Notes: generated from the sequence alone by a model not told the origin. A stretch of DNA of 64,000 bases from an uncultured Gammaproteobacteria bacterium (GCA_964621085.1 CAZUKY010000001.1:167226-231225), one strand, 5' to 3'. Shown: positions 2,164 to 45,208, numbered from the stretch's first letter. Numbers and translations: made by a program.

Positions 2164-3948
2164 CTACCCCCTATCATCCGGCGGAATTTCGTAATAGTCA
2201 AGAAGGAACTTTGCGATCTCTCCAAACAACGGGGCTGCTGAGCTCTCCGCCCACTGCACATCGCGCGGACGGTCGATCTTAACGAGCATCACGAAAGCAG
2301 GATCATCGACAGGCGCGTACCCGACAAACGAACCGATCGTCGCATCGGTTTCGTACCCGCGCCCATCTTTCTTGGGAACCTGCGCCGTACCTGTCTTGCC
2401 GGCAACATAATAGCCTGGCACACCAGCCCGCTTCCCATGTCCGCGCTGCACGACATTTGCAAGCATGCCGGAAACCAGTGTCGATGTCTGTCGGGAAATA
2501 ACCTGGCGCACGACGCGAGGACTTGTCTTCTCTTTTTCTCCGTTCGGCTTAATAATCATGTCGACAATATACGGCTGCATGAGCGCGCCCCCGTTTGCCA
2601 GCGCAGCATAGGCTGTCACAAGCTGCAGCGGTGTTACCGTCAGGCCTTGGCCGAAGGAGTTTGTCGCGAGATAAATTTCCCGCTTTTCGTTCAACGATTT
2701 TATATTACCGCGCGCCTCGGTATCCAGCTCGATGCCACTCGGCGCGCCGAAGCCGAAATCCTGGACATACCGCCGAAACTCTTCAAGTCCAACCAGCTTT
2801 GCAACGTGGATAACGCCCGTATTCAACGATTTCTCCAAAACATCAACCATCGTCTGCTTTCCATAAGCCTTTTTGTCCGAGTTGGAAATAGCATACCCAT
2901 CAATCGTCATTCGACCGGTATCCTCATAAACGCTCTCCGGCGTGATACTCCCTTTGTCCAGACCGATCGCCATCGTGATCGCCTTAAATGTGGATCCCGG
3001 CTCATACGGAGCAAAGATTGCGGGATTGGGATAGGTGGCGACATCGGACTCCCAATACGTTTCGGGATCGAAGTCAGGGACGCTGCACATGGCAAGAATC
3101 CCCCCCGTTTTCGGATTCATAATAATGACCGTCCCTCCATCAGCGCCATGCCGCGCCACCCATTTCTTCAGGCGATCGCAGGCGACCATCTGTACAGTCC
3201 GATCCAGCGTCAGGACGATATTGCTTCCATCAACCGCATCGACGACGCGGCTGTCGCCGACCGGAATCAGAGTGCCGATCGCGTCTCGCTCAAAACGCAG
3301 CGACCCCTCCGTGCCCTTCAAAATCTCATGAAAATACCCCTCGATCCCATAGACCCCCCGATACACGTCTTGTGCGTATCCCAAAAATCCAAACACGTGC
3401 CCGCCGAGCCCTTTTTCCGGATAAAAACGGTAGGTCTCGCTCTCCGATCCGATGCCGGGCAGCCCCAGTTGCGCAATCTTTTCATACGTCTCCTCGGGAA
3501 CCTTTCTCTTCAAAACGCGATAGGACCCCTCGCCGCCCAGCCGCTCGATGATTTCTTCTTTTTGCATCTCGAGCAAAGGCGCGAGACGCTCTGCCGCCAG
3601 TTCCTTCTCGCGGACGTCGCGCGGAACGGCGTATACGCGGCGGTACTCCCGATTCGTAACCGCCGGATACAATTTTTCCCCCGCAATGTCTACCAAAAAA
3701 GCGTTGTCCTCTTCCGAATGGAAGTCGCGGACAAAAATTTCTCCGCGTTTGGGAAAGAGTTTTTTGAAGAGCGTATGCCCGCCTTCCGCGGCGGCGCGAT
3801 AATCCTCATAACTCATGACCTGCAAGTTGAAAAGCCGCAACGAAAGAATGCAGGCACCCAGAATGATTGCCACCTTGAGAATGCGAATGCGAGGAGAAAA
3901 CCCCGATCCTTCCCGTCTCCTCGAAAAAAAATGATGTCCGTAGGTCAT
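2164..3948 (-). CDS. ftsI: Peptidoglycan D,D-transpeptidase FtsI / class B PBP (ORF extends to 4041; start at MTYGHHFF preferred)
   Basis: Single N-terminal TM segment, then transpeptidase motifs STFK, SNS and KTGT. Sits in dcw-cluster order. Confidence 0.85.
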   Translation of the reverse strand: MTYGHHFFSRRREGSGFSPRIRILKVAIILGACILSLRLFNLQVMSYEDYRAAAEGGHTLFKKLFPKRGEIFVRDFHSEEDNAFLVDIAGEKLYPAVTNREYRRVYAVPRDVREKELAAERLAPLLEMQKEEIIERLGGEGSYRVLKRKVPEETYEKIAQLGLPGIGSESETYRFYPEKGLGGHVFGFLGYAQDVYRGVYGIEGYFHEILKGTEGSLRFERDAIGTLIPVGDSRVVDAVDGSNIVLTLDRTVQMVACDRLKKWVARHGADGGTVIIMNPKTGGILAMCSVPDFDPETYWESDVATYPNPAIFAPYEPGSTFKAITMAIGLDKGSITPESVYEDTGRMTIDGYAISNSDKKAYGKQTMVDVLEKSLNTGVIHVAKLVGLEEFRRYVQDFGFGAPSGIELDTEARGNIKSLNEKREIYLATNSFGQGLTVTPLQLVTAYAALANGGALMQPYIVDMIIKPNGEKEKTSPRVVRQVISRQTSTLVSGMLANVVQRGHGKRAGVPGYYVAGKTGTAQVPKKDGRGYETDATIGSFVGYAPVDDPAFVMLVKIDRPRDVQWAESSAAPLFGEIAKFLLDYYEIPPDDRG

Positions 3949-4065
3949 ATCATGAATTCCGCATTTCGTGTACGAGATCGGTGGTAGTAAGGCTGTATAA
4001 AGTCTACCAAAATGCGGGCGCAACAAAAACAACCAGCGCACAGAAAAGACGCTGGTTGTCCCTGA

Positions 4066-4431
4066 TCACCGCACGGCGGCGACGGATTGTGAGGATGCTT
4101 TCAGATACTCGATTCGCTCAGTGCGCACCAGTCCGAGACTGTCGACTTTTTCCTGAAGCGAACCGAGACTCTGACGCTCGATAATTTTCATTTGAAGGCG
4201 CTCGTTCTGCTTTTTCTGTTCGGATATCCGCTTCTCAAGATCTTTGATCTGATACCCTTTCGTGGCGAGCGCATTCACTTGCACGAGATAGAGTACACTA
4301 AAAAGCGCCACTGTCAAGGCGAGTCCCTTGTTGAGCATCCGCATCCGCGGATGAGCCGCAGAGGTCTTTTCGCTCTCCAAACGGGCATTTTTAAGAAATT
4401 TTCTCATTAGTTGTGTGAAAGGGAGGGACAT
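4066..4431 (-). CDS. ftsL: Cell-division protein FtsL-like (small bitopic coiled-coil protein)
   Basis: 121 aa with one TM helix (LALTVALFSVLYLVQV) followed by a coiled coil. Lies between rsmH and ftsI as in canonical dcw clusters. Confidence 0.55.
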   Translation of the reverse strand: MSLPFTQLMRKFLKNARLESEKTSAAHPRMRMLNKGLALTVALFSVLYLVQVNALATKGYQIKDLEKRISEQKKQNERLQMKIIERQSLGSLQEKVDSLGLVRTERIEYLKASSQSVAAVR

Positions 4432-33895: not shown

Positions 33896-34750
33896 CTAGC
33901 TTCCTTTCTTCGGACGGCCGCGCTTCTTTGGCGCTGATTCCTCGCCGCCTTCTTCGGCCTCTCCCTCTTCCTCGTCCTGAGCTGCTGCCTGGTCTTCGGT
34001 TTCTGCCTCGACGGCCGTCTCGAGCGGAGCCTCTTCTTCCTCGGCCTGCGTAGCCTCGGCGGAAACGCCGCCGAGAAGGGCAGCAAAGTGATCGACAAGA
34101 ATCTTGCTCGCTTCGCGCGCCGCTTCCTCTCCAGTCACACTGCCGTCCGTCTCGATGGTGAGCACGACTTTATTGTAGTTCGTCATCTGTCCGACGCGGA
34201 CATTTTGAATATCAAGCCCGACCATTTTGACAGGCGTAAAAATCGCATCGACGGCAATGGTCCCGATCTCAAGCTTTTCTTTCTCGCGCGCTTCCGTCGG
34301 CCAATACCCCCTGCCGCGCTTGACGAAGAGCTCCATTTCCAGTTGCGCATTCTTGTTTGTCAGCGTACAGATGTGCGCATCGGGTGTTGCAATCTCAACC
34401 TCGCTCGTACCCTCAATATCGGCACCTGTGACGTTCTTTTCCCCTTTCACCTGAAGCGTCACACGGACCGTCTCGTCTGAATGGACGCGAAAACGAACCT
34501 TCTTCAGATTCAAAATGATGTCAACAACATCCTCTTGTACGTACGGAATCGTTGAAAACTCATGAGCAACACCCTTGATCTTGACCGCAACGACCGCACC
34601 GCCCGGCAACGATGACAGCAGCACGCGACGCAGCGCATTGCCGATCGTCAGCCCATAGCCAGGATACAGCGGCTCGATGGTCATGACCGTCTGATTCGGC
34701 TTTTGCCCGGCCGCGTATTCGATCTTTGTGGGAAGGGAAACGTTTTCCAT
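33896..34750 (-). CDS. rpoA: DNA-directed RNA polymerase subunit alpha, lacking a canonical alpha-CTD
   Basis: The N-terminal domain (dimerisation and beta/beta' contacts) is collinear with RpoA for ~230 aa. The protein then ends in an acidic low-complexity tail plus KKRGRPKKG. Confidence 0.9.
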   Translation of the reverse strand: MENVSLPTKIEYAAGQKPNQTVMTIEPLYPGYGLTIGNALRRVLLSSLPGGAVVAVKIKGVAHEFSTIPYVQEDVVDIILNLKKVRFRVHSDETVRVTLQVKGEKNVTGADIEGTSEVEIATPDAHICTLTNKNAQLEMELFVKRGRGYWPTEAREKEKLEIGTIAVDAIFTPVKMVGLDIQNVRVGQMTNYNKVVLTIETDGSVTGEEAAREASKILVDHFAALLGGVSAEATQAEEEEAPLETAVEAETEDQAAAQDEEEGEAEEGGEESAPKKRGRPKKGS

Positions 34751-36721: not shown

Positions 36722-36786
36722 AATCGCTTATAAAATAAATAATACTCCGCTGATATCCGGAGATATTATGCTGAAAGCTTTTTGAT

Positions 36787-36884: not shown

Positions 36885-38630
36885 CTACGCCACAACGGCC
36901 CGAATCCGGCGGATGCCAGCAGAAGATGCCTCTTCTTTGACAATCGAAAAGGAGCCGATTTGACCGGTATGCGACACGTGCGGACCGCCGCAAAACTCCT
37001 TAGAAAACGCCTCTTCCAGCGACGGGCCAACGACATAAATGCTCACGCGATCGGGATATTTTTCCTGAAAAAAATAGAGGGCTCCGGTGCGTTTCGCCTC
37101 TTCGATCGGCAGCTCGATGCGCTGCACCGGGAGATCCTGCCGCACGATGTCGTTGACGAGTGCCTCGACTTGGCGCAGTTCCTCGTCGGTTACTTTGCGC
37201 GGGAACGAGAAGTCAAAGCGCGTGCGTTCGACCGTAATATCCGATCCGCGCTGCGAGACGTCAGGTCCCAGGACCTGTCGGAGCGCCTGCTGTAACAGAT
37301 GGGTTGCCGTATGCAGGCGTGTCACGATCGAGAGTTCCGCCTCGTCTTTTGCCTTTAACTCGCCGGTGTCCAGCAGCAATCCATGGCCGCCGAACTTCTT
37401 CTCGAGGCCGGCCCGAGAGATTTCCTGGTGTTTTTTGAACGCCTCTTCAAATGCTTCTCGCGTCAGTCCGCGTGCCTTCTCGCCTCCCACCTCTTTTGTG
37501 ACCTCGTAGGGAAGGCCGTAACTCTCGTAGAGCTTAAAGGCGGTCTGGGCATCGACGCTCTCAAGTTTTGCGAGCTCTTTGAGACCGTTCTTTAGCGTTT
37601 TGAGAAACTTTTCTTTCTCGGCGGAAAACTCGCTTGCAATTACCTCTTTTTGCAGCTCCGGATACCACTCGCCATAGTCGTCGACAATGCGATCAAAGAC
37701 CGGGGCAAGTGAAAGTGCGCCTTCGGCCAAGTACTCCTGCGCGATCACCCGCCGCAGAAGACGCCGCAGGATGTACCCTCGTTCTTTGTTGGACGGCCGA
37801 ACGCCGTCTGAGACCAAAAACGCGACGGCACGGCAGTGATCGGCAATGATACGCTTCATGCGCGGTTCGAGGGTTGCTGGTAGAAGCCCGATGATCGGAC
37901 TGAAGAGGTCTGTCTCATACATGGTACCTGTATGCTGAGCAACCATGGCAAGCCGCTCAAAACCCATGCCGGTATCAATCCCGGGTGTCGCCAGCTCGGT
38001 GAGATGCGCGCGACCCGCCTCGAGATCCTCCCGCGAACCGTCGCAGAAAAACTGATTAAACACGATATTCCACACCTCAATATCAGTACCGTTTGCATTT
38101 TTGCAGTAGATCTCCGTCGTTGGTCCGCACGGGCCGCTTGATCCCGTCGGACCCCAAAAGACGTCGCTCATCCCCTGCTCGCGGATATCGGTAACGCCCA
38201 GCTCCTGCCAGATGGCGCGCGACTCCTCGTCTTTCGGCACGTGTCCCGACCCCTCGAAAATGGAAACGTAGGAGATTGTGAGTCCGCACACCTTCGTTAT
38301 GAACTCATGCGCATACGTAATCGCCTCCCGCTTGAAATATCCGCCGAAGGAGAAATTCCCAAGCATCTCAAAAAAAGTGAGATGACTTTCATCACCCACC
38401 TCGTCGATATCCGATGTGCGGAAGCTTTTTTGGATCGAGGCGGTGTTTTTCGACCCAAAGTCGGCCATCGCGTCGGCCTCGCCAGTGTAGTACTTTTTGA
38501 ACTGCTGCATGCCCGCCGTCGTCAGGAGTACCGACGGATCATCAGGAATCAGCGAAGACGACGGCACGATCGCGTGCCCCCGCTCCTTAAAGTACTCGAT
38601 AAATTTTTTACGAAGTTCTGAGGAAGTCAT
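36885..38630 (-). CDS. alaS: Alanine--tRNA ligase, compact 581-aa form (catalytic + editing domains; abbreviated C-terminus)
   Basis: Class II AlaRS N-terminal motifs (FIEYFKERGH, TTAGMQQFK). Editing-domain HTATHLL and CGGPHV zinc motifs. Confidence 0.85.
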   Translation of the reverse strand: MTSSELRKKFIEYFKERGHAIVPSSSLIPDDPSVLLTTAGMQQFKKYYTGEADAMADFGSKNTASIQKSFRTSDIDEVGDESHLTFFEMLGNFSFGGYFKREAITYAHEFITKVCGLTISYVSIFEGSGHVPKDEESRAIWQELGVTDIREQGMSDVFWGPTGSSGPCGPTTEIYCKNANGTDIEVWNIVFNQFFCDGSREDLEAGRAHLTELATPGIDTGMGFERLAMVAQHTGTMYETDLFSPIIGLLPATLEPRMKRIIADHCRAVAFLVSDGVRPSNKERGYILRRLLRRVIAQEYLAEGALSLAPVFDRIVDDYGEWYPELQKEVIASEFSAEKEKFLKTLKNGLKELAKLESVDAQTAFKLYESYGLPYEVTKEVGGEKARGLTREAFEEAFKKHQEISRAGLEKKFGGHGLLLDTGELKAKDEAELSIVTRLHTATHLLQQALRQVLGPDVSQRGSDITVERTRFDFSFPRKVTDEELRQVEALVNDIVRQDLPVQRIELPIEEAKRTGALYFFQEKYPDRVSIYVVGPSLEEAFSKEFCGGPHVSHTGQIGSFSIVKEEASSAGIRRIRAVVA

Positions 38631-38692: not shown

Positions 38693-40414
38693 TCATTTGA
38701 CCGTCTTGGCTCGCATTGCAAGTCGCTCGTCAAGGGTTTGGACAAAACGGGGAGAGTAGTAAGTGAATTTGTTTATTTTCCGAGAATCAAAAAATGTGCC
38801 GGTCTCCTTTTCCGCAAAGTCCCGATTCTCATCAATAAGCGACTGGATTTCACCCCTGATGAAGGGCTTACTCCGGATATGCTTTCGGTCGGCCGCAATC
38901 GAATCCAGCGAAAGCCATCCCGTCGGCGCAACGTCTCCCTCCCGCCGGGATTCGAGCCTCCTTTTGATCAGCGCCACGAACGAAGGAGAGTAATAGGTTG
39001 ATGTATCTCCGGAATTACTAAAAAAATCATCAACGTTCCCTGATTTCAATTTCGGGTTTTCAGCCAGCAGCTCTGCGGCGATATCTGCAATGACCGGCCG
39101 TGAGGTCTTGAGAATCGGCTCGAGCGCCTTGCCGGTCTGCCACCCTTCCGGGGCATACGCGCCCTGCTTTGCGATTTCCTTCTTCAGCGCTTCTGCGAAT
39201 ATCGGTGAGAAGTGGGGCGTTTTTACCGTTGCACTCCAATACTCTTTCACGTGATCGGCAAGTTCCGGTCGTTCGACAAGTAATCGATCGATGAGGGGCT
39301 TTAACCCTGTCTCGCTTCGTCCCCCAATCTTTTGCTTCCCCAACGCTTTGAGCGTTATCCATCCCTCAGGCGCACGCTCCATGCTATTCATTCGCTCTTG
39401 TGCCATCTGGATAAGGTCCGGCGAATAGTAGGTTGTAAATCCAGATGTTGCATAAAACTCCTTTGCATGATCTTTTTGGAGTTCGGGATTCTCTTCGAGA
39501 AGAGCATCAATAACTTTTTGAATAGTTTTCTTCGTTCTTCCGCCGAGCCTTTCCGCTCCAAGCGTTCTGATTGCCTTCCAGGCATCGGGCGCTTTTTCTT
39601 TCTTGGCGAGAAGCGCTTCGATCTGTGTAATAAAGAACGGTGAGTAGTATGTCGTCTTTCCGATATTCGAAAAATACAGCCCCGTATGTTCATCCTTCCA
39701 CTCTGGATGTGATTTCAAAAGATCGTCGCATGCATTTTTTATTGTTTGCTCCGTCTTCCCCGCAAGTTTCATTCGACCGAGCGTTGCAGGCGTTTTCCAT
39801 CCCTCTGGCGCATTCTCGCCCATTACAGCAAGCCGCTCGCCGATCAGTCGAATAAATTCTGGTGCATAAAATTCGGTCGGACCAGCCTTGCTCTGAAACT
39901 TCTTCACATATGTCTTACGTGATGGGTCCTCGGACAAAAGCACTCGTACGGCATCTCCTGCTACCTTACCGCTTCGACCAAAACGATCGGCAAGAGTGGT
40001 AATGCTCAACCAGTCTTCCGGAGGATCCGGCAGCGGTTCGAAAAGTTCTGCATCAATTTCCGGATTATTAATATCGATCCGAGCAAACGAAGTTCCTACT
40101 GGAGCGGCGCGCTTCAGGAAGCGTGTCACACTCCGCCCATTCATCTCTACCCCATGGACGATAACCCTCTTGAGCGCGACAAGGCCGCCCGTCACTGTTA
40201 TGCATGGCGTCTCAACACCATCGATCTGGACCGTAACAAAGGTATCCGGCGGATATTCATCCTGGATAACGCGCAGGGATGGATACGGTTTGATATCAGC
40301 GACAAAAAAGGATGCGTTCGCAAGCTTAAACGCCTGATTAATAACAGAATGACGAAACTCCGGTCGCTCTACCCGTTCAGGAGCTTTCTCTGTTGGACGC
40401 TCGAGTGCACTCAT
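38693..40414 (-). CDS. Cytoplasmic tandem-repeat protein: ~125-aa N-terminal domain followed by six ~73-aa repeats. Novel, no family recognised.
   Basis: Repeat consensus read directly: A-P-E-G-W-x-T-x-x-x-L-G...L-L-x-E-x-P-E-L...T-T-Y-Y-S-P-x-F-I. No signal peptide or TM segment. Confidence 0.6.
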   Translation of the reverse strand: MSALERPTEKAPERVERPEFRHSVINQAFKLANASFFVADIKPYPSLRVIQDEYPPDTFVTVQIDGVETPCITVTGGLVALKRVIVHGVEMNGRSVTRFLKRAAPVGTSFARIDINNPEIDAELFEPLPDPPEDWLSITTLADRFGRSGKVAGDAVRVLLSEDPSRKTYVKKFQSKAGPTEFYAPEFIRLIGERLAVMGENAPEGWKTPATLGRMKLAGKTEQTIKNACDDLLKSHPEWKDEHTGLYFSNIGKTTYYSPFFITQIEALLAKKEKAPDAWKAIRTLGAERLGGRTKKTIQKVIDALLEENPELQKDHAKEFYATSGFTTYYSPDLIQMAQERMNSMERAPEGWITLKALGKQKIGGRSETGLKPLIDRLLVERPELADHVKEYWSATVKTPHFSPIFAEALKKEIAKQGAYAPEGWQTGKALEPILKTSRPVIADIAAELLAENPKLKSGNVDDFFSNSGDTSTYYSPSFVALIKRRLESRREGDVAPTGWLSLDSIAADRKHIRSKPFIRGEIQSLIDENRDFAEKETGTFFDSRKINKFTYYSPRFVQTLDERLAMRAKTVK

Positions 40415-41484
40415 AGGTTGATGATCCCGCCTCCCAGCATTTCCTGTCCCTTATAGAGCACGATGATTTGCCCGGGGGTGACTGCGCGTTGAGGCTTTGA
40501 AAATGTCGCGATGAGCCCTGGTTTCTTTTTTGAGAGCCTGCTCGATTGCAACGGTTGGCGATAGCGGATCCGCGCCGTGCACGCAAGGGGCAGTCGCGGT
40601 TGCTTTCCTGCAATCCAGTTCATTTCCGTGACTGCAAGCTCGCGTGTGTAGAGTGCCGGATTCTTCTCGCCTGGTGCGACATACACGATGTTCTTTTTCA
40701 TGTCCTTACCCACGACATACATCGCCTGGCCGCCGCCGGGAAACCCGAGTCCGTGCCGCTGCCCGATCGTGTAGTAGCCGGCACCCTGATGCGTTCCGAC
40801 GCGCGCACCATCGAGTGTCATGAGCGGGCCGGGCTTCATCCTTATTTTACCCTTCAAAAATTCTAACATGGCAATCTCACCGACAAAACAGACGCCCTGA
40901 CTGTCTTTTTTATCGGCATTGGGAAGCTTGAATTTCTTTGCGAGCGCGCGCACCTCGGGCTTTGTAAGGTCGCCGACAGGAAACATGCAATGCGCGAGCT
41001 GCTCCTGAGTGAGACCGTACAAGAAGTAGCTTTGGTCCTTATTCTTGTCCTTTCCCTGCAGAAGCGCAAATCGACCTTCTTTCTTCTTTACTCGGACATA
41101 ATGCCCGGTTGCAATCGCATCCGCCCCTTCTTTCCGGGCCTTCTTTAAAAAATAGCCGAACTTGATGAAGGTGTTGCACATCACATCCGGGTTTGGCGTG
41201 CGACCTGCCTTGTACTCGGCGAGCATGTAACGGATCACATGGCGCTTGTACTCTTTGCGAAAATCCCAGACCTCAAAAGGAATGCCCAGATGCGCCGCAA
41301 CGGCGAGCGCATCCTTCTTATCGTCCCGCTGCGTGCAGACGATCGTTTTCTCAATATCCTCGTCAAACTGCAGCATGAACACGCCAGTGACATCATGACC
41401 CTGGCTCTTGAGAAGCGCAGCACTCGCCGCCGAGTCGACCCCGCCGGAAAGCGCGACAGTTATTTTTTTCACCGTCTTCTTCAT
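40411..41484 (-). CDS. mnmA: tRNA-specific 2-thiouridylase MnmA
   Basis: PP-loop SGGVDSA, catalytic cysteines, and overall MnmA collinearity. 4-nt overlap with the upstream gene. Confidence 0.9.
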   Translation of the reverse strand: MKKTVKKITVALSGGVDSAASAALLKSQGHDVTGVFMLQFDEDIEKTIVCTQRDDKKDALAVAAHLGIPFEVWDFRKEYKRHVIRYMLAEYKAGRTPNPDVMCNTFIKFGYFLKKARKEGADAIATGHYVRVKKKEGRFALLQGKDKNKDQSYFLYGLTQEQLAHCMFPVGDLTKPEVRALAKKFKLPNADKKDSQGVCFVGEIAMLEFLKGKIRMKPGPLMTLDGARVGTHQGAGYYTIGQRHGLGFPGGGQAMYVVGKDMKKNIVYVAPGEKNPALYTRELAVTEMNWIAGKQPRLPLACTARIRYRQPLQSSRLSKKKPGLIATFSKPQRAVTPGQIIVLYKGQEMLGGGIINL

Positions 41485-41513: not shown

Positions 41514-41550
41514 CGTAAAGAAAACGCCCGGACAGTTCGTCGCCCGGGCG
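41514..41550 (-). terminator. Putative intrinsic terminator (minus strand) between the NDT-like gene and mnmA
   Basis: cgcccgg/ccgggcg 7-bp GC stem (41525-41531 / 41544-41550). Followed on the minus strand by a T-run (plus-strand aaagaaaa at 41517-41524). Confidence 0.4.
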
Positions 41551-41571: not shown

Positions 41572-42030
41572 TCAAAAACCAGGTTTCAAGAAAAACTCGA
41601 GGCTCGGCCCTCCCGTATCCCGCACATCCGAACCGTACAGCTCTTCCATTATCGTTATGAATTCGTCATCAGTTTTCGCGCGACGAACTCCAGGCAGGAA
41701 GTAGAAGATCGAACGATCGCTCTTCTCCCCGACAATAATGACCATTTTTCCGTCAAGGAATGCGGCTGCGAACCCGAAGCCAGTCTCGATATGCGCCCCG
41801 AGAAGGTCGTCGTCATACAGAACGACGAGGAGGTCTGAACTGCCGACGGCACGCAACATCGCAAGTGCTGCCTCTGCCGCTTTCTCGGGGTGGTTCTCGA
41901 AGGGCTTCGCGACGACATTCTTCGTCCAATCGTACGGTACGGTGAAGCCGTACTTCTCAAGCACCTGCTTGATTTGAGCGATGCGCTCCTCAGCCTTGTT
42001 CACCTTACCCGCAATGTACGCTGTTGACAT
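41572..42030 (-). CDS. Nucleoside 2-deoxyribosyltransferase-like protein (ORF opens at 42168; MSTAYIAGK start preferred)
   Basis: N-terminal YIAGK plus a D..LLGAHIETGFGFAAAFLDGKMVII segment matching the NDT-family active-site region (D/E..GT..E.G.A...GKP). Confidence 0.5.
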   Translation of the reverse strand: MSTAYIAGKVNKAEERIAQIKQVLEKYGFTVPYDWTKNVVAKPFENHPEKAAEAALAMLRAVGSSDLLVVLYDDDLLGAHIETGFGFAAAFLDGKMVIIVGEKSDRSIFYFLPGVRRAKTDDEFITIMEELYGSDVRDTGGPSLEFFLKPGF

Positions 42031-42049
42031 CTGGTTCTCCTCTCTTCGG

Positions 42050-42325
42050 CTAGGATAGCGTGCCGCGCAGGAGGTAGCCGGGAGTGCCGTTCTCCAGCTC
42101 GCTGTCGAGGATGAAGTAGGTCGTGCCGTCAACTTCGCACTCCCAAGCGTACTGCTCGCGGTGCTCATAGATCATCAACCGCTTGCGCCCGAGCAAAATC
42201 GCGCTGCCGCTGGGCAGACTCTCGCTGCGATTCCAGGCGAGTTGGCGCGACTCGGCGTTCTCGCGCGGCAACTCGAGCAGCCGAACGGGCTGAGCGAGTA
42301 CCGTGGTATTTTGCGGCGATGACAT
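42050..42325 (-). CDS. Small hypothetical protein (91 aa)
   Basis: ORF between tdk and the NDT-like gene on the same strand. No homology recognised. Confidence 0.35.
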   Translation of the reverse strand: MSSPQNTTVLAQPVRLLELPRENAESRQLAWNRSESLPSGSAILLGRKRLMIYEHREQYAWECEVDGTTYFILDSELENGTPGYLLRGTLS

Positions 42326-42417: not shown

Positions 42418-42969
42418 TCAAACGACATGGCACGTGCGGCACCGAGCCTCGTACTCCTCGTCGCCGACGAGCACCTGATCGCCTTCTGCCGGCGCCGGTT
42501 TTCCGCTTACCAGTCGCTGGGACATTGTGGCACGGTCGCCGCACACCATGCAGACAGCATCAAGCTTGAGTACGTCATCGGCGATTGCCATCAGATGCGG
42601 AACAACGCCGAACGGAACGCCGCGGAAGTCCATATCCAGACCCGAGAGGATCACGTGGACGCCGTTTTTGCGAAGCGTGTCGATAACATCCGCGATGCCG
42701 GGCGGGAAAAAATGCGCCTCATCGATGCCGACAACCTCTGCGCCCTGGGCTTGCGGCAAAATTTCATCCGGATGCGCAATGGGCGTTGCCGTAAAACAAA
42801 TGCCGTTTCTGCTGCACAGCTCTGTCGGCTTGTCCCATCGCGTATCGATCGACGGCTTGAAAACCGCAATACGTTTCTTAGCAATCGCACTGCGCCGCAA
42901 GCGGCGCAACAGCTCCTCGCTCTTGCCCGAGAACATGCACCCGACGATTATTTCCACGCTTCCCTGCAT
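42418..42969 (-). CDS. tdk: Thymidine kinase (ORF opens at 43104; MQGSVEIIVG start preferred)
   Basis: P-loop GCMFSGKSEEL, IDEAHFF, and C-terminal Zn-ribbon CMVCG...CRTCH. Confidence 0.85.
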   Translation of the reverse strand: MQGSVEIIVGCMFSGKSEELLRRLRRSAIAKKRIAVFKPSIDTRWDKPTELCSRNGICFTATPIAHPDEILPQAQGAEVVGIDEAHFFPPGIADVIDTLRKNGVHVILSGLDMDFRGVPFGVVPHLMAIADDVLKLDAVCMVCGDRATMSQRLVSGKPAPAEGDQVLVGDEEYEARCRTCHVV

Positions 42970-43118
42970 ACAAAAAATTACATTCGTCAGATCGATTATC
43001 GCGCGTGTATACCTTAACGTCAATCGCGCAGTAGGGTGAGAGTGGGCGCACTTTTGACATTCAAGCGATTTTTTGCTATAATTATATGATATTAGGTCTG
43101 GCACTATACGGAGGTGTA

Positions 43119-43639: not shown

Positions 43640-45208
43640 TCACTCAATCTCCTCTTTTTTCTCTTTGATGAACGAGAACCACTCTTCGGTGATCTCGATG
43701 AATGCCTGGAGCGGCAGCTCGATGAGCACGTCGAAGAGAAAGACGAAGACATTGACGCGGGAGATGTTGAACGAGAGCCAGTGGCCGACTTGCACGATCG
43801 GCATGGAAAAGGTGTCCAGCAAGGTTCCGAGGAGCGTCTGGCGGGGCTTGAGAATGATCAGCTCGCGCACCTGGCGGCGCAAGGTAATCCCGAAAAACGT
43901 GATAAGAGAGAAGAACAGGAAAAAGATAATGCCGCTCATCAGGTTGAAGTTCAACTTGTGCAGCACCCAGGCGACCGCACCGAATGAAATCGCATACACG
44001 GCGAGGTAAAAAATGGTGAAAAAAACGGAGAGGACCCGGTTGCGGCGGGGATCCGAATTTTTCTTCGGGACGAAAATCTCTGCCGGCGTTTCCTTGTAGA
44101 GAATCTCTTTGACGGCCTGAACAATGGCGCGCGTATTGGCATCGCTCGGAAAAGAAACGGTAAACGCGATGGCGGCGAGAAGAAACGGCGGGAACAAGAT
44201 ATTGATCAAGAGCGGCACGCCGTGAATCTCGCCTGCCGTCAAGAGGTCGTAGGGCAGCTCAACGGCCAGACCTAACACCATCTTGGTTAAAAAGATATAG
44301 ACAAACGCACGGATTGTGCGCGAATAGAGCCGCCGATGCTGCACGGAGTAGAGCCCCTCGCAAATACGCGTCGCCTCGCGCTCGAGGACATCCGGATCCA
44401 TGATCGCTTCGGGATTGTTTTTTGCAATCGTCAAAAGCACGATAAAGGGAATCCGGTGCCGGCGGAACTCTCCCTGGAACTTTTTGTTGAGCGGATGGCG
44501 AATGAGAGCGTCGATCTTGCGCGCCACGTTCGCGTACTCCGTCGCGCGCGTGCGCGGATCAGTGCTCGTGTCGATCCACTCGGGGAAACTCTGCTTCAAG
44601 ATGAAGTAGCGAAGCCGATGGATGTCGGGACGCAGGAGGATGCGGTATGCGGCAATGAACATCTGCGACTTGCGCAAACGCTCGTCCGCTTCGTCTTGAG
44701 CTTGGGGAGTCAGCGGCTCGCACTGTTCGTACATGAGGCGAACCAGCGCCTCTTCGTGATCCATGGGCGAGAGGCGCTCATCGATCGCGCAGGCAGCCAT
44801 CGCGATGAGCCAGTCGGAGTCTTTGTCTGAAAGGGTTTTTTCGCGCCGAAGCGACTCGACGATTCGCAAGTAAAAGGCGAGGATCTCGGCGACCTCGGAT
44901 ATCGCACGGTGGCCCAGTGTATTGTTCGGAAAATACCGCGATCGCACCAGTTCGCGTACCAGTCCGTTTGCGATCTTTTCGGGCTCATCCTGCAGGATCA
45001 GCCGCCGCGAGAGGATCCGCCGGATCGCATTTTGCCGCAGAAGATGCTCGTCGGCATAATCGATGACGCTGCGGATCTTTTCGTAATAAAACGCGATCGC
45101 GCCGACCGCTTCATTGATGACGATTTTTTGCTCGTCCTCGATCTCGCGCGGCTTTTTTTTCAAGGCAGCCGCATACCGCGAAAAGCGTTCTGTGAGTGTC
45201 AGAGGCAT
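43640..45208 (-). CDS. Membrane protein: large cytoplasmic N-terminal domain plus 4-5 C-terminal TM helices. Hypothetical; in an operon with the VirD4-like ATPase.
   Basis: Hydrophobic helices in the last ~200 aa (for example FPPFLLAAIAFTVSF and SVFFTIFYLAVYAISFGAVAWVL). Confidence 0.5.
   Translation of the reverse strand: MPLTLTERFSRYAAALKKKPREIEDEQKIVINEAVGAIAFYYEKIRSVIDYADEHLLRQNAIRRILSRRLILQDEPEKIANGLVRELVRSRYFPNNTLGHRAISEVAEILAFYLRIVESLRREKTLSDKDSDWLIAMAACAIDERLSPMDHEEALVRLMYEQCEPLTPQAQDEADERLRKSQMFIAAYRILLRPDIHRLRYFILKQSFPEWIDTSTDPRTRATEYANVARKIDALIRHPLNKKFQGEFRRHRIPFIVLLTIAKNNPEAIMDPDVLEREATRICEGLYSVQHRRLYSRTIRAFVYIFLTKMVLGLAVELPYDLLTAGEIHGVPLLINILFPPFLLAAIAFTVSFPSDANTRAIVQAVKEILYKETPAEIFVPKKNSDPRRNRVLSVFFTIFYLAVYAISFGAVAWVLHKLNFNLMSGIIFFLFFSLITFFGITLRRQVRELIILKPRQTLLGTLLDTFSMPIVQVGHWLSFNISRVNVFVFLFDVLIELPLQAFIEITEEWFSFIKEKKEEIE

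Follow-up and report, generated by a model that had tools for sequence, protein, structure and literature searches.

We analysed a 64,000-nucleotide (nt) stretch of DNA from an uncultured Gammaproteobacteria bacterium (GCA_964621085.1 CAZUKY010000001.1:167226-231225, called the window below), in which a gene at 38693-40414 encodes a protein with six tandem repeats. In this study, we found that the repeats are predicted to fold as winged helix-turn-helix (wHTH) modules and that they belong to an unnamed family whose members are repeatedly fused to DNA motors. From the predicted fold and from analogy with known DNA-binding filaments, the product is probably a cytoplasmic, multivalent double-stranded DNA (dsDNA)-binding protein built as a covalent head-to-tail wHTH array. 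The parts of the gene are as follows, with positions counted from the first letter of the window, lengths in amino acids (aa) and the basis of each call in brackets.

38693-40414, minus strand: repeat gene, whole; 573-aa protein with a 130-aa N-terminal region and six winged-helix modules (open reading frame [ORF] list, repeat hidden Markov model [HMM])
40025-40414, minus strand: N-terminal region, residues 1-130; orphan, predicted partly beta, acidic with an isoelectric point (pI) of 5.4 (AlphaFold2 [AF2], homolog searches)
39812-40024, minus strand: module 1, residues 131-201, PPEDW...FYAP variant (repeat alignment, repeat HMM, AF2)
39593-39811, minus strand: module 2, residues 202-274 (repeat alignment, repeat HMM, AF2)
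39374-39592, minus strand: module 3, residues 275-347, modelled on its own
39155-39373, minus strand: module 4, residues 348-420 (repeat alignment, repeat HMM, AF2)
38930-39154, minus strand: module 5, residues 421-495, the sole acidic module, pI 5.3 (repeat alignment, repeat HMM, AF2)
38696-38929, minus strand: module 6, residues 496-573, the most divergent and most basic, pI 9.7 (repeat alignment, repeat HMM, AF2)

The repeat gene encodes six anciently duplicated modules

The ORF lies on the minus strand exactly where the first-pass annotation had placed it, with 573 codons and a TGA stop at 38693-38695. When the frames of the window were scanned with the repeat HMM, six domains were found in the frame of the repeat gene and none elsewhere. 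The modules are 71-78 aa long with a period of 73 aa, and their pairwise identity is 21-38%. BLOSUM62 local scores of all 15 module pairs were 6.6-28 standard deviations above shuffled controls, which bears out the six tandem repeats of ~73 aa described in that annotation. Its motif, APEGW...LG...LL.E.PEL...TYYSP.FI, was also found as claimed, apart from repeat 1 (PPEDW/FYAP), which together with repeat 6 diverges most. Conservation is highest at Trp5 and at the Pro of YSP. At the turn of the helix-turn-helix (HTH), four of the six modules carry G-[RK]-[ST] and the remaining two carry basic residues. The whole protein has a pI of 8.85 and a net charge of +6. The maximum Kyte-Doolittle value over 19 residues is 1.46, with no hydrophobic stretch and a hydrophilic N-terminus; the protein is therefore cytoplasmic, and the earlier call of no signal peptide or transmembrane segment holds.

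The first-pass annotation had named an assembly artefact as a possible source of so regular an array. Tandem Repeats Finder detected no DNA tandem repeat in the gene. The codon-aligned DNA identity between modules is 39-50%, and at the third codon position it is 25-42%, near random. Short DNA repeats were confined to the conserved APEGW junction. Because there is no DNA-level repeat and the modules are highly diverged in DNA, the duplications are ancient and an assembly artefact is excluded.

The modules are predicted to fold as winged helix-turn-helix domains

A single module and the whole array were modelled and compared with known structures, as the first-pass annotation had proposed. AF2 was run on module 3 with an alignment of 142 repeats. 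The model of this module alone had a predicted local distance difference test (pLDDT) score of 87.5, and its elements follow in the order short strand, helix 1, turn, long "recognition" helix 2, short helix, beta-hairpin and C-terminal helix. In the full-length model (mean pLDDT 81.1), the six modules are alike in secondary structure and each has a pLDDT above 90; in module 1, for example, helices at residues 138-144, 149-162 and 164-169 are followed by strands at 170-175 and 178-183 and a helix at 185-197. The last helix of each module, 12-18 residues long, runs straight into the next APEGW junction, and there is no extra domain. Since AF2 gives a compact helical core with an HTH and a beta-hairpin wing, the predicted assignment of the module to the wHTH fold is solid. 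The narrower label "MerR/Par-type" is moderately supported.

In a Foldseek search of the module against the PDB, nearly all listed proteins were wHTH proteins (MarR, ArsR, HxlR, RacA), with matches below significance. The best template modelling (TM) score, 0.53/0.57, was obtained with RacA-DNA, and the top structural neighbours are all dsDNA binders. The full-length model gave nothing meaningful against the PDB, only weak matches to proteins with several winged helices (Tfb2/p52, RPC62, SarS, ScpB) with probability <=0.25 and a TM-score of about 0.1.

The repeats define an unnamed family fused to DNA motors

A word-indexed search with the whole protein returned only the protein itself and one relative, P0002 in our numbering (P for proteins, L for loci), which has six clearer repeats. 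A family profile was then built from twelve repeats, six from each of these two proteins, and was used in an exhaustive search of 1.84 billion representatives. This search gave 796 protein clusters at E<=1e-3 and 278 at E<=1e-30. The family proteins are 258-1831 aa long and carry 3-15 repeats each; the module number thus varies among relatives, a point that the first-pass annotation had wished to see checked. The protein of the window scored 479 bits (E 2.3e-142), a score that is partly circular because the profile contained its own repeats. With a 142-repeat profile dominated by other proteins, it still matched with six domains of 26.7-51.1 bits each (240.9 in total).

Across the family, the repeats give the consensus APEGWmTn..LA..Lgv...tvkkiAe.YR..HPEWFk.Y....G...EHYsPELV..I and recur with a median period of 68 aa. 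The conserved core consists of APEGW, L11, YR..HPEWF and EHYSPELV..I. Variation is greatest in helix 1, the turn, the wing and the beginning of helix 2, and the beginning of helix 2 is also enriched in basic residues across family repeats. The family therefore combines a conserved core with variable HTH and wing surfaces.

Architectures and identities were taken from the 150 best of the 796 clusters. A ~245-aa N-terminal domain precedes the repeats in 55 of these 150 proteins. In 24, the repeats follow an N-terminal ResIII/DEAD and Helicase_C core that, in NCBIfam, comes closest to RadD, XPB and type I restriction R subunits. About 20 carry SNF2, Helicase_C and methyltransferase domains C-terminal to the repeats, and others consist of repeats alone. 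The ~245-aa domain, the commonest partner of the array (L001:590-1312, L013:7001-7732 and others), shows the pattern GSGEG...PR...MMR.ESY....LVNDEEGNATF(I/V)VH; it had no match in Pfam or the PDB and is itself an undescribed domain. At L004:7167-13238 (CAYRBH010000008.1), a 1485-aa ORF with 14 repeats and an SNF2 N-lobe runs to 11624 and is followed immediately by a 537-aa ORF from 11625; the pair is probably one gene of ~2000 aa with a single stop, by sequencing error or recoding.

One metagenomic contig carries paralogs in series. At L009:2-4243 (ENA ERZ4903125 k141_4855469; listed together with L012), four or five paralogous repeat-array genes with differing repeat numbers stand in tandem on one strand. 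Three of these paralogs share a ~115-aa N-terminal domain (SFPHDILGKEY..GVSFTVLGMQPVYY..IPFKGGYA.ITKIRIGDEV) and have 5, 1+3 and 0 copies of the module. The pair at 2047-2577 and 2546-3214 looks like a single gene split by a frameshift. In the paralog at 3218-4243, the ~115-aa domain is followed by a different, unrecognised ~75-aa repeat (..G.Y.D..G..WM...L...FG.S...I..) with no APEGW module, which may be a second HTH-like array on the same "head".

The protein of the window is an isolated, divergent member, at most 29.5% identical to any of the 150 best. Positional orthology between its six repeats and those of P0002 was not significant (7.8% of permutations reach the diagonal sum). No match was found when GTDB species-representative genomes were scanned with it. 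The housekeeping proteins encoded next to it are all singletons at 90% identity as well, and its want of orthologs therefore reflects an unsampled lineage.

Family loci were located with the narrow pattern YRES[NH]PEW, which had no match in viral contigs. The taxonomic picture is a small sample because this pattern gave only 7 genome loci. The seven members with an organism label, taken from these loci and a few named records, belong mostly to the candidate phyla radiation; their labels are Patescibacteria, Magasanikiibacteriota and Peregrinibacteria, with a few metagenome-assembled genomes labelled otherwise that have similar-looking gene content. Public names of the ten members looked up were uninformative: "hypothetical protein", "DEAD/DEAH box helicase" or spurious automatic labels.

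The family is absent from the curated libraries tested

The whole protein gave nothing significant against Pfam, NCBIfam, PHROGs, PADLOC or PDB sequences, and the 142-repeat profile gave nothing below E 0.03 against PDB sequences. We found no published description of this repeat in the literature. The first-pass annotation could assign the repeats to no named repeat family; this stands for the libraries, and the protein is not unique, since it joins the unnamed family described above. Sub-threshold matches of repeats were to HTH_29, HTH_28, GntR, HTH_11 and MerR-like or HTH PHROGs. Pfam HTH_29 left the protein of the window unmatched, and the relatives stayed under the 28.1-bit gathering threshold except in the total of P0004, where 38.6 bits were summed over 14 repeats and no single stretch exceeded the threshold.

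Membership in several known groups was examined and rejected. The MerR HMM matched neither the protein of the window (at E<=10) nor 15 relatives, and the sole MerR-like PHROG match was a weak one, to P0002 (E 1.3e-3). A coiled-coil dimerisation helix and an effector region, both expected of the MerR family, are lacking. HTH_17 models gave no significant match to the protein or the relatives examined, and membership among Xis proteins or excisionases fails on sequence and on architecture. The likeness to type Ia ParA and Par is limited to the wHTH; the protein has no ATPase domain, and no partition genes lie in the neighbourhood of the repeat gene. It is not a BldC-like regulator, as its modules are covalently repeated in a 573-aa chain and no similarity to BldC was detected. 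A TALE-like array does not fit repeats with identities of 21-38% to one another and 17-38% to family repeats, with variability spread over about 25 positions. A defence role of the protein was also set aside, given no PADLOC match and a housekeeping context; the helicase matches of the relatives are generic and far below family cutoffs.

The N-terminal region is an orphan

The first-pass annotation had described an N-terminal domain of ~125 aa; the region exists, and its length is 130 aa. Residues 1-121 have a pLDDT below 50 in the full-length model. A single-sequence search found no homologs of the region at E<=0.01. A weak likeness was seen only to the N-terminus of P0079 (E 5e-4, in a small database), and a five-sequence profile that included P0079-type N-domains failed to recover the region; judged by these alignments, homology to the P0079-type domain is weakly indicated. 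The common ~245-aa N-domain of the family was ruled out as its counterpart (hhalign probability 0.2%).

The repeat gene lies between mnmA and alaS

The neighbouring genes and signals are listed below.

40411-41484, minus strand: mnmA (tRNA 2-thiouridine synthase), upstream gene (NF001138, 444.5 bits, cutoff 284)
36885-38630, minus strand: alaS, downstream gene, short 581-aa form (NF002436, 541.5 bits, cutoff 529; Pfam tRNA-synt_2c and tRNA_SAD)
41525-41550, minus strand: terminator-like hairpin just upstream of mnmA, 10 pairs, 8 of them GC, with a T-run (consensus scan, pattern match only)
36745-36762, minus strand: weaker terminator-like hairpin downstream of alaS (consensus scan, pattern match only)

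The order of transcription is mnmA, repeat gene, alaS. The mnmA TGA stop and the ATG of the repeat gene share 4 nt in an ATGA junction, whose sequence was checked and confirms the overlap reported in the first-pass annotation. The same annotation had the repeat gene following alaS, which was mistaken: it precedes alaS by a gap of 62 nt. As pattern matches, the hairpin at 41525-41550 is the probable 5' boundary of this three-gene unit and that at 36745-36762 a possible 3' boundary. The GC content within the repeat gene (0.47-0.53) is slightly lower than in the flanks (0.54-0.58).

The alanyl-tRNA synthetase encoded here has the catalytic and editing/SAD domains without the C-terminal domain, and its NF002436 score is barely over the cutoff. 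Several other genes of the window, all on the minus strand, were also recorded. RpoA (33896-34750) has only 284 aa; Pfam places the N-terminal dimerisation and insert domains at residues 26-222, with no alpha-CTD, and it finishes with an acidic low-complexity tail whose last residues, KKRGRPKKGS, form an AT-hook-like motif. At 41572-42168, a 198-aa ORF with a Ser/Thr/Ala-rich N-terminus has a sub-threshold nucleoside 2-deoxyribosyltransferase match and adjoins a thymidine kinase gene (42418-43104), which suggests a small nucleoside-salvage pair. A predicted membrane protein of 522 aa (43640-45208) had no match in Pfam or NCBIfam.

The array probably binds dsDNA along an extended site

The first-pass annotation had suggested a modular binding scaffold, possibly for RNA or nucleic acid. 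This is partly supported: the wHTH fold and the DNA-motor fusions point to dsDNA as the probable ligand, and an RNA or tRNA role is poorly supported. In the mechanism that we propose, six modules joined head to tail through the conserved APEGW junction would form one array. Every module would set its HTH and wing on DNA, and the array would therefore contact successive sites along several tens of base pairs (bp). It would be the covalent counterpart of the head-to-tail filaments formed by single-domain MerR-like proteins, the six modules resembling a pre-assembled filament of six protomers. The stand-alone form in the window may serve as an architectural or nucleoid-associated protein, or as a regulator that recognises a long site. 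Relatives may use such an array to anchor or target the superfamily 2 (SF2)/SNF2 DNA motors and the methyltransferase. A partner or effector function specific to the lineage probably resides in the orphan N-terminal 130 residues.

Several observations weigh against dsDNA binding by the array. Winged helices can bind RNA or proteins too. The family repeats are only mildly basic (median net charge +1) and the median whole-protein pI is 6.7. Conservation seems to follow structure, and the recognition helix has no invariant basic residue. Most family repeats have an aromatic residue followed by Arg or Lys (YR in 41%) where all six modules of the window have LL or LI, so that the conserved Arg of the family is lost. 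The Foldseek matches of the module are weak (best E 0.46, none <=0.001), and a predicted TM-score of 0.58 for the full-length model makes the orientation between modules only moderately confident. Apart from the terminator hairpin, the flanking intergenic DNA is without direct or inverted repeats, and hence without repeated candidate binding sites.

The near-neutral family pI, the structural character of the conserved positions with no invariant basic residue on the recognition helix, and the change of YR to LL or LI would also suit a protein-protein scaffold. Here the winged helices would offer docking surfaces in the manner of ScpB, cullins, TFIIH p52 and RPC62, without direct contact with nucleic acid. 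The weak, low-probability Foldseek matches to the multi-winged-helix protein-binding subunits Tfb2/p52 and RPC62 point the same way. Such a scaffold accounts less well for the helicase and SNF2 fusions, and we regard it as unlikely. The gene neighbourhood raises another explanation, a scaffold acting with MnmA and alanyl-tRNA synthetase whose modules hold or present tRNAs or other RNAs. The repeat gene is translationally coupled to mnmA by the ATGA overlap and lies in a co-directional unit with alaS 62 nt downstream and terminator-like hairpins on both flanks. Some winged-helix domains bind RNA, and faint OST-HTH/LOTUS matches were seen in relatives. In addition, an aminoacyl-tRNA synthetase gene lies within about four genes at 5 of the ~9 family loci inspected: alaS in the window, and pheS-like, argS (twice) and aspS genes at L002, L005, L014 and L015. 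This proximity is weak evidence because genomes of the candidate phyla radiation (CPR) type are dense in translation genes. Moreover, mnmA/alaS synteny was present in no relative inspected; the nearest ones (P0079, P0128 and P0002) sit among unknown genes or paralogs, and others adjoin lexA and a sigma factor, holA, adk, or rpsB/tsf. Since the neighbourhood is unconserved, a tRNA role is poorly supported, and the position beside tRNA-related genes is probably incidental. Fusions in the family are to DNA-type motors (SNF2; RadD/XPB/HsdR-like) and all the top structural neighbours bind dsDNA, which leaves an RNA scaffold with a very small share of our confidence.

A non-functional gene, whether a decaying or spurious ORF or a mis-assembled repeat array, would explain the missing close orthologs, the orphan N-terminus with its low-confidence structure and the slightly lower GC content. 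Against it, the frame is intact for 573 codons, and the six modules keep the core residues of the family and fold at a pLDDT above 90. The DNA of the modules is too diverged for an artefact of collapse or expansion, the gene is translationally coupled inside a run of housekeeping genes, and the equally singleton status of the neighbouring proteins points to an unsampled lineage; we consider this explanation hardly credible. These results suggest that dsDNA binding by a covalent wHTH array is the most probable function of the protein.

A further extension of dsDNA binding, which we judge quite improbable, is that the family reads DNA module by module. The variable HTH and wing residues of each ~70-aa module would recognise a fixed, short piece of DNA, and arrays of 3-15 modules would spell long composite addresses. 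Stand-alone arrays would then regulate from long sites or organise the chromosome, and fused arrays would bring SNF2/SF2 motors and the methyltransferase to chosen loci in tiny CPR genomes. The differing repeat numbers in the L009 paralog clusters would be a sign that specificities diversify rapidly.

Significance of the family

CPR bacteria (Patescibacteria) have very small genomes with few recognisable transcription factors, and to our knowledge almost no chromatin or regulatory proteins have been characterised in them. The winged-helix fold itself is a classical one, and chains with a small number of tandem winged helices are known; we know of no earlier description of regular winged-helix arrays of 3-15 copies. 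Neither the CPR-type spread of this family nor its recurrent fusions to SF2, SNF2 and methyltransferase domains is represented in the curated libraries tested. With up to 15 modules in tandem and recurrent fusions to DNA translocases and a methyltransferase, the family is a candidate lineage-specific system for organising or targeting DNA. The module definition gives a usable profile, and thus a new domain family, for annotating these proteins. If each module does read a defined step of DNA, the arrays may be of engineering interest. On the strength of the models and analogies, the protein of the window moves from an unassignable repeat protein to a probable DNA-binding protein.

Comparison with known systems

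The MerR-family N-terminal domains (MerR, GlnR, TnrA, SoxR, TipAL), RacA and lambda Xis/TorI are among the closest known systems, and the protein of the window is separated from them by the lack of a significant MerR or HTH_17 HMM match and by Foldseek E-values that are not significant. MerR-family proteins also have a dimerisation coiled coil and an effector domain, and the modules have neither. The DNA-binding domain of pSK1 Par (8csh) and the wHTH of type Ia ParA proteins (P1 ParA 3ez9; V. cholerae ParA2 7npd) are 6-15% identical to the module. These are single wHTH domains, whereas the protein of the window is an array without the ParA ATPase or the Par coiled coil.

RPC62, TFIIH p52/Tfb2, SarS and ScpB resemble it in holding two to four winged-helix domains in one chain. 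Their domains are heterogeneous, however, several act mainly in protein-protein contacts, and none has 6-15 regular copies. TALE, PPR/PUF and C2H2 zinc-finger arrays share the regular tandem plan, with a conserved scaffold, variable putative reading surfaces and, here, a copy number of 3-15. Their folds are unrelated, and the repeats of this family are 21-45% identical overall rather than near-identical with a few hypervariable code positions.

The closest parallel is BldC of Streptomyces, a 68-residue MerR-like wHTH protein and the founder of the BldC-like regulators (PMC5859096). Like BldC, Xis and RacA are architectural proteins with a MerR-like wHTH, and both BldC and lambda Xis form head-to-tail filaments on direct repeats (PMC5859096). 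BldC protomers bind DNA direct repeats head to tail, at about 9 bp each, and build extended filaments (PMC5859096). In size, the 68 aa of BldC compare with a median of 68 aa for the family module and 73 aa for that of the window. The module, for which a MerR-like winged-helix topology is moderately supported, and BldC alike lack a coiled-coil dimerisation helix and an effector domain. By this analogy, a covalent tandem array would reproduce the geometry of the BldC head-to-tail filament within a single protein chain.
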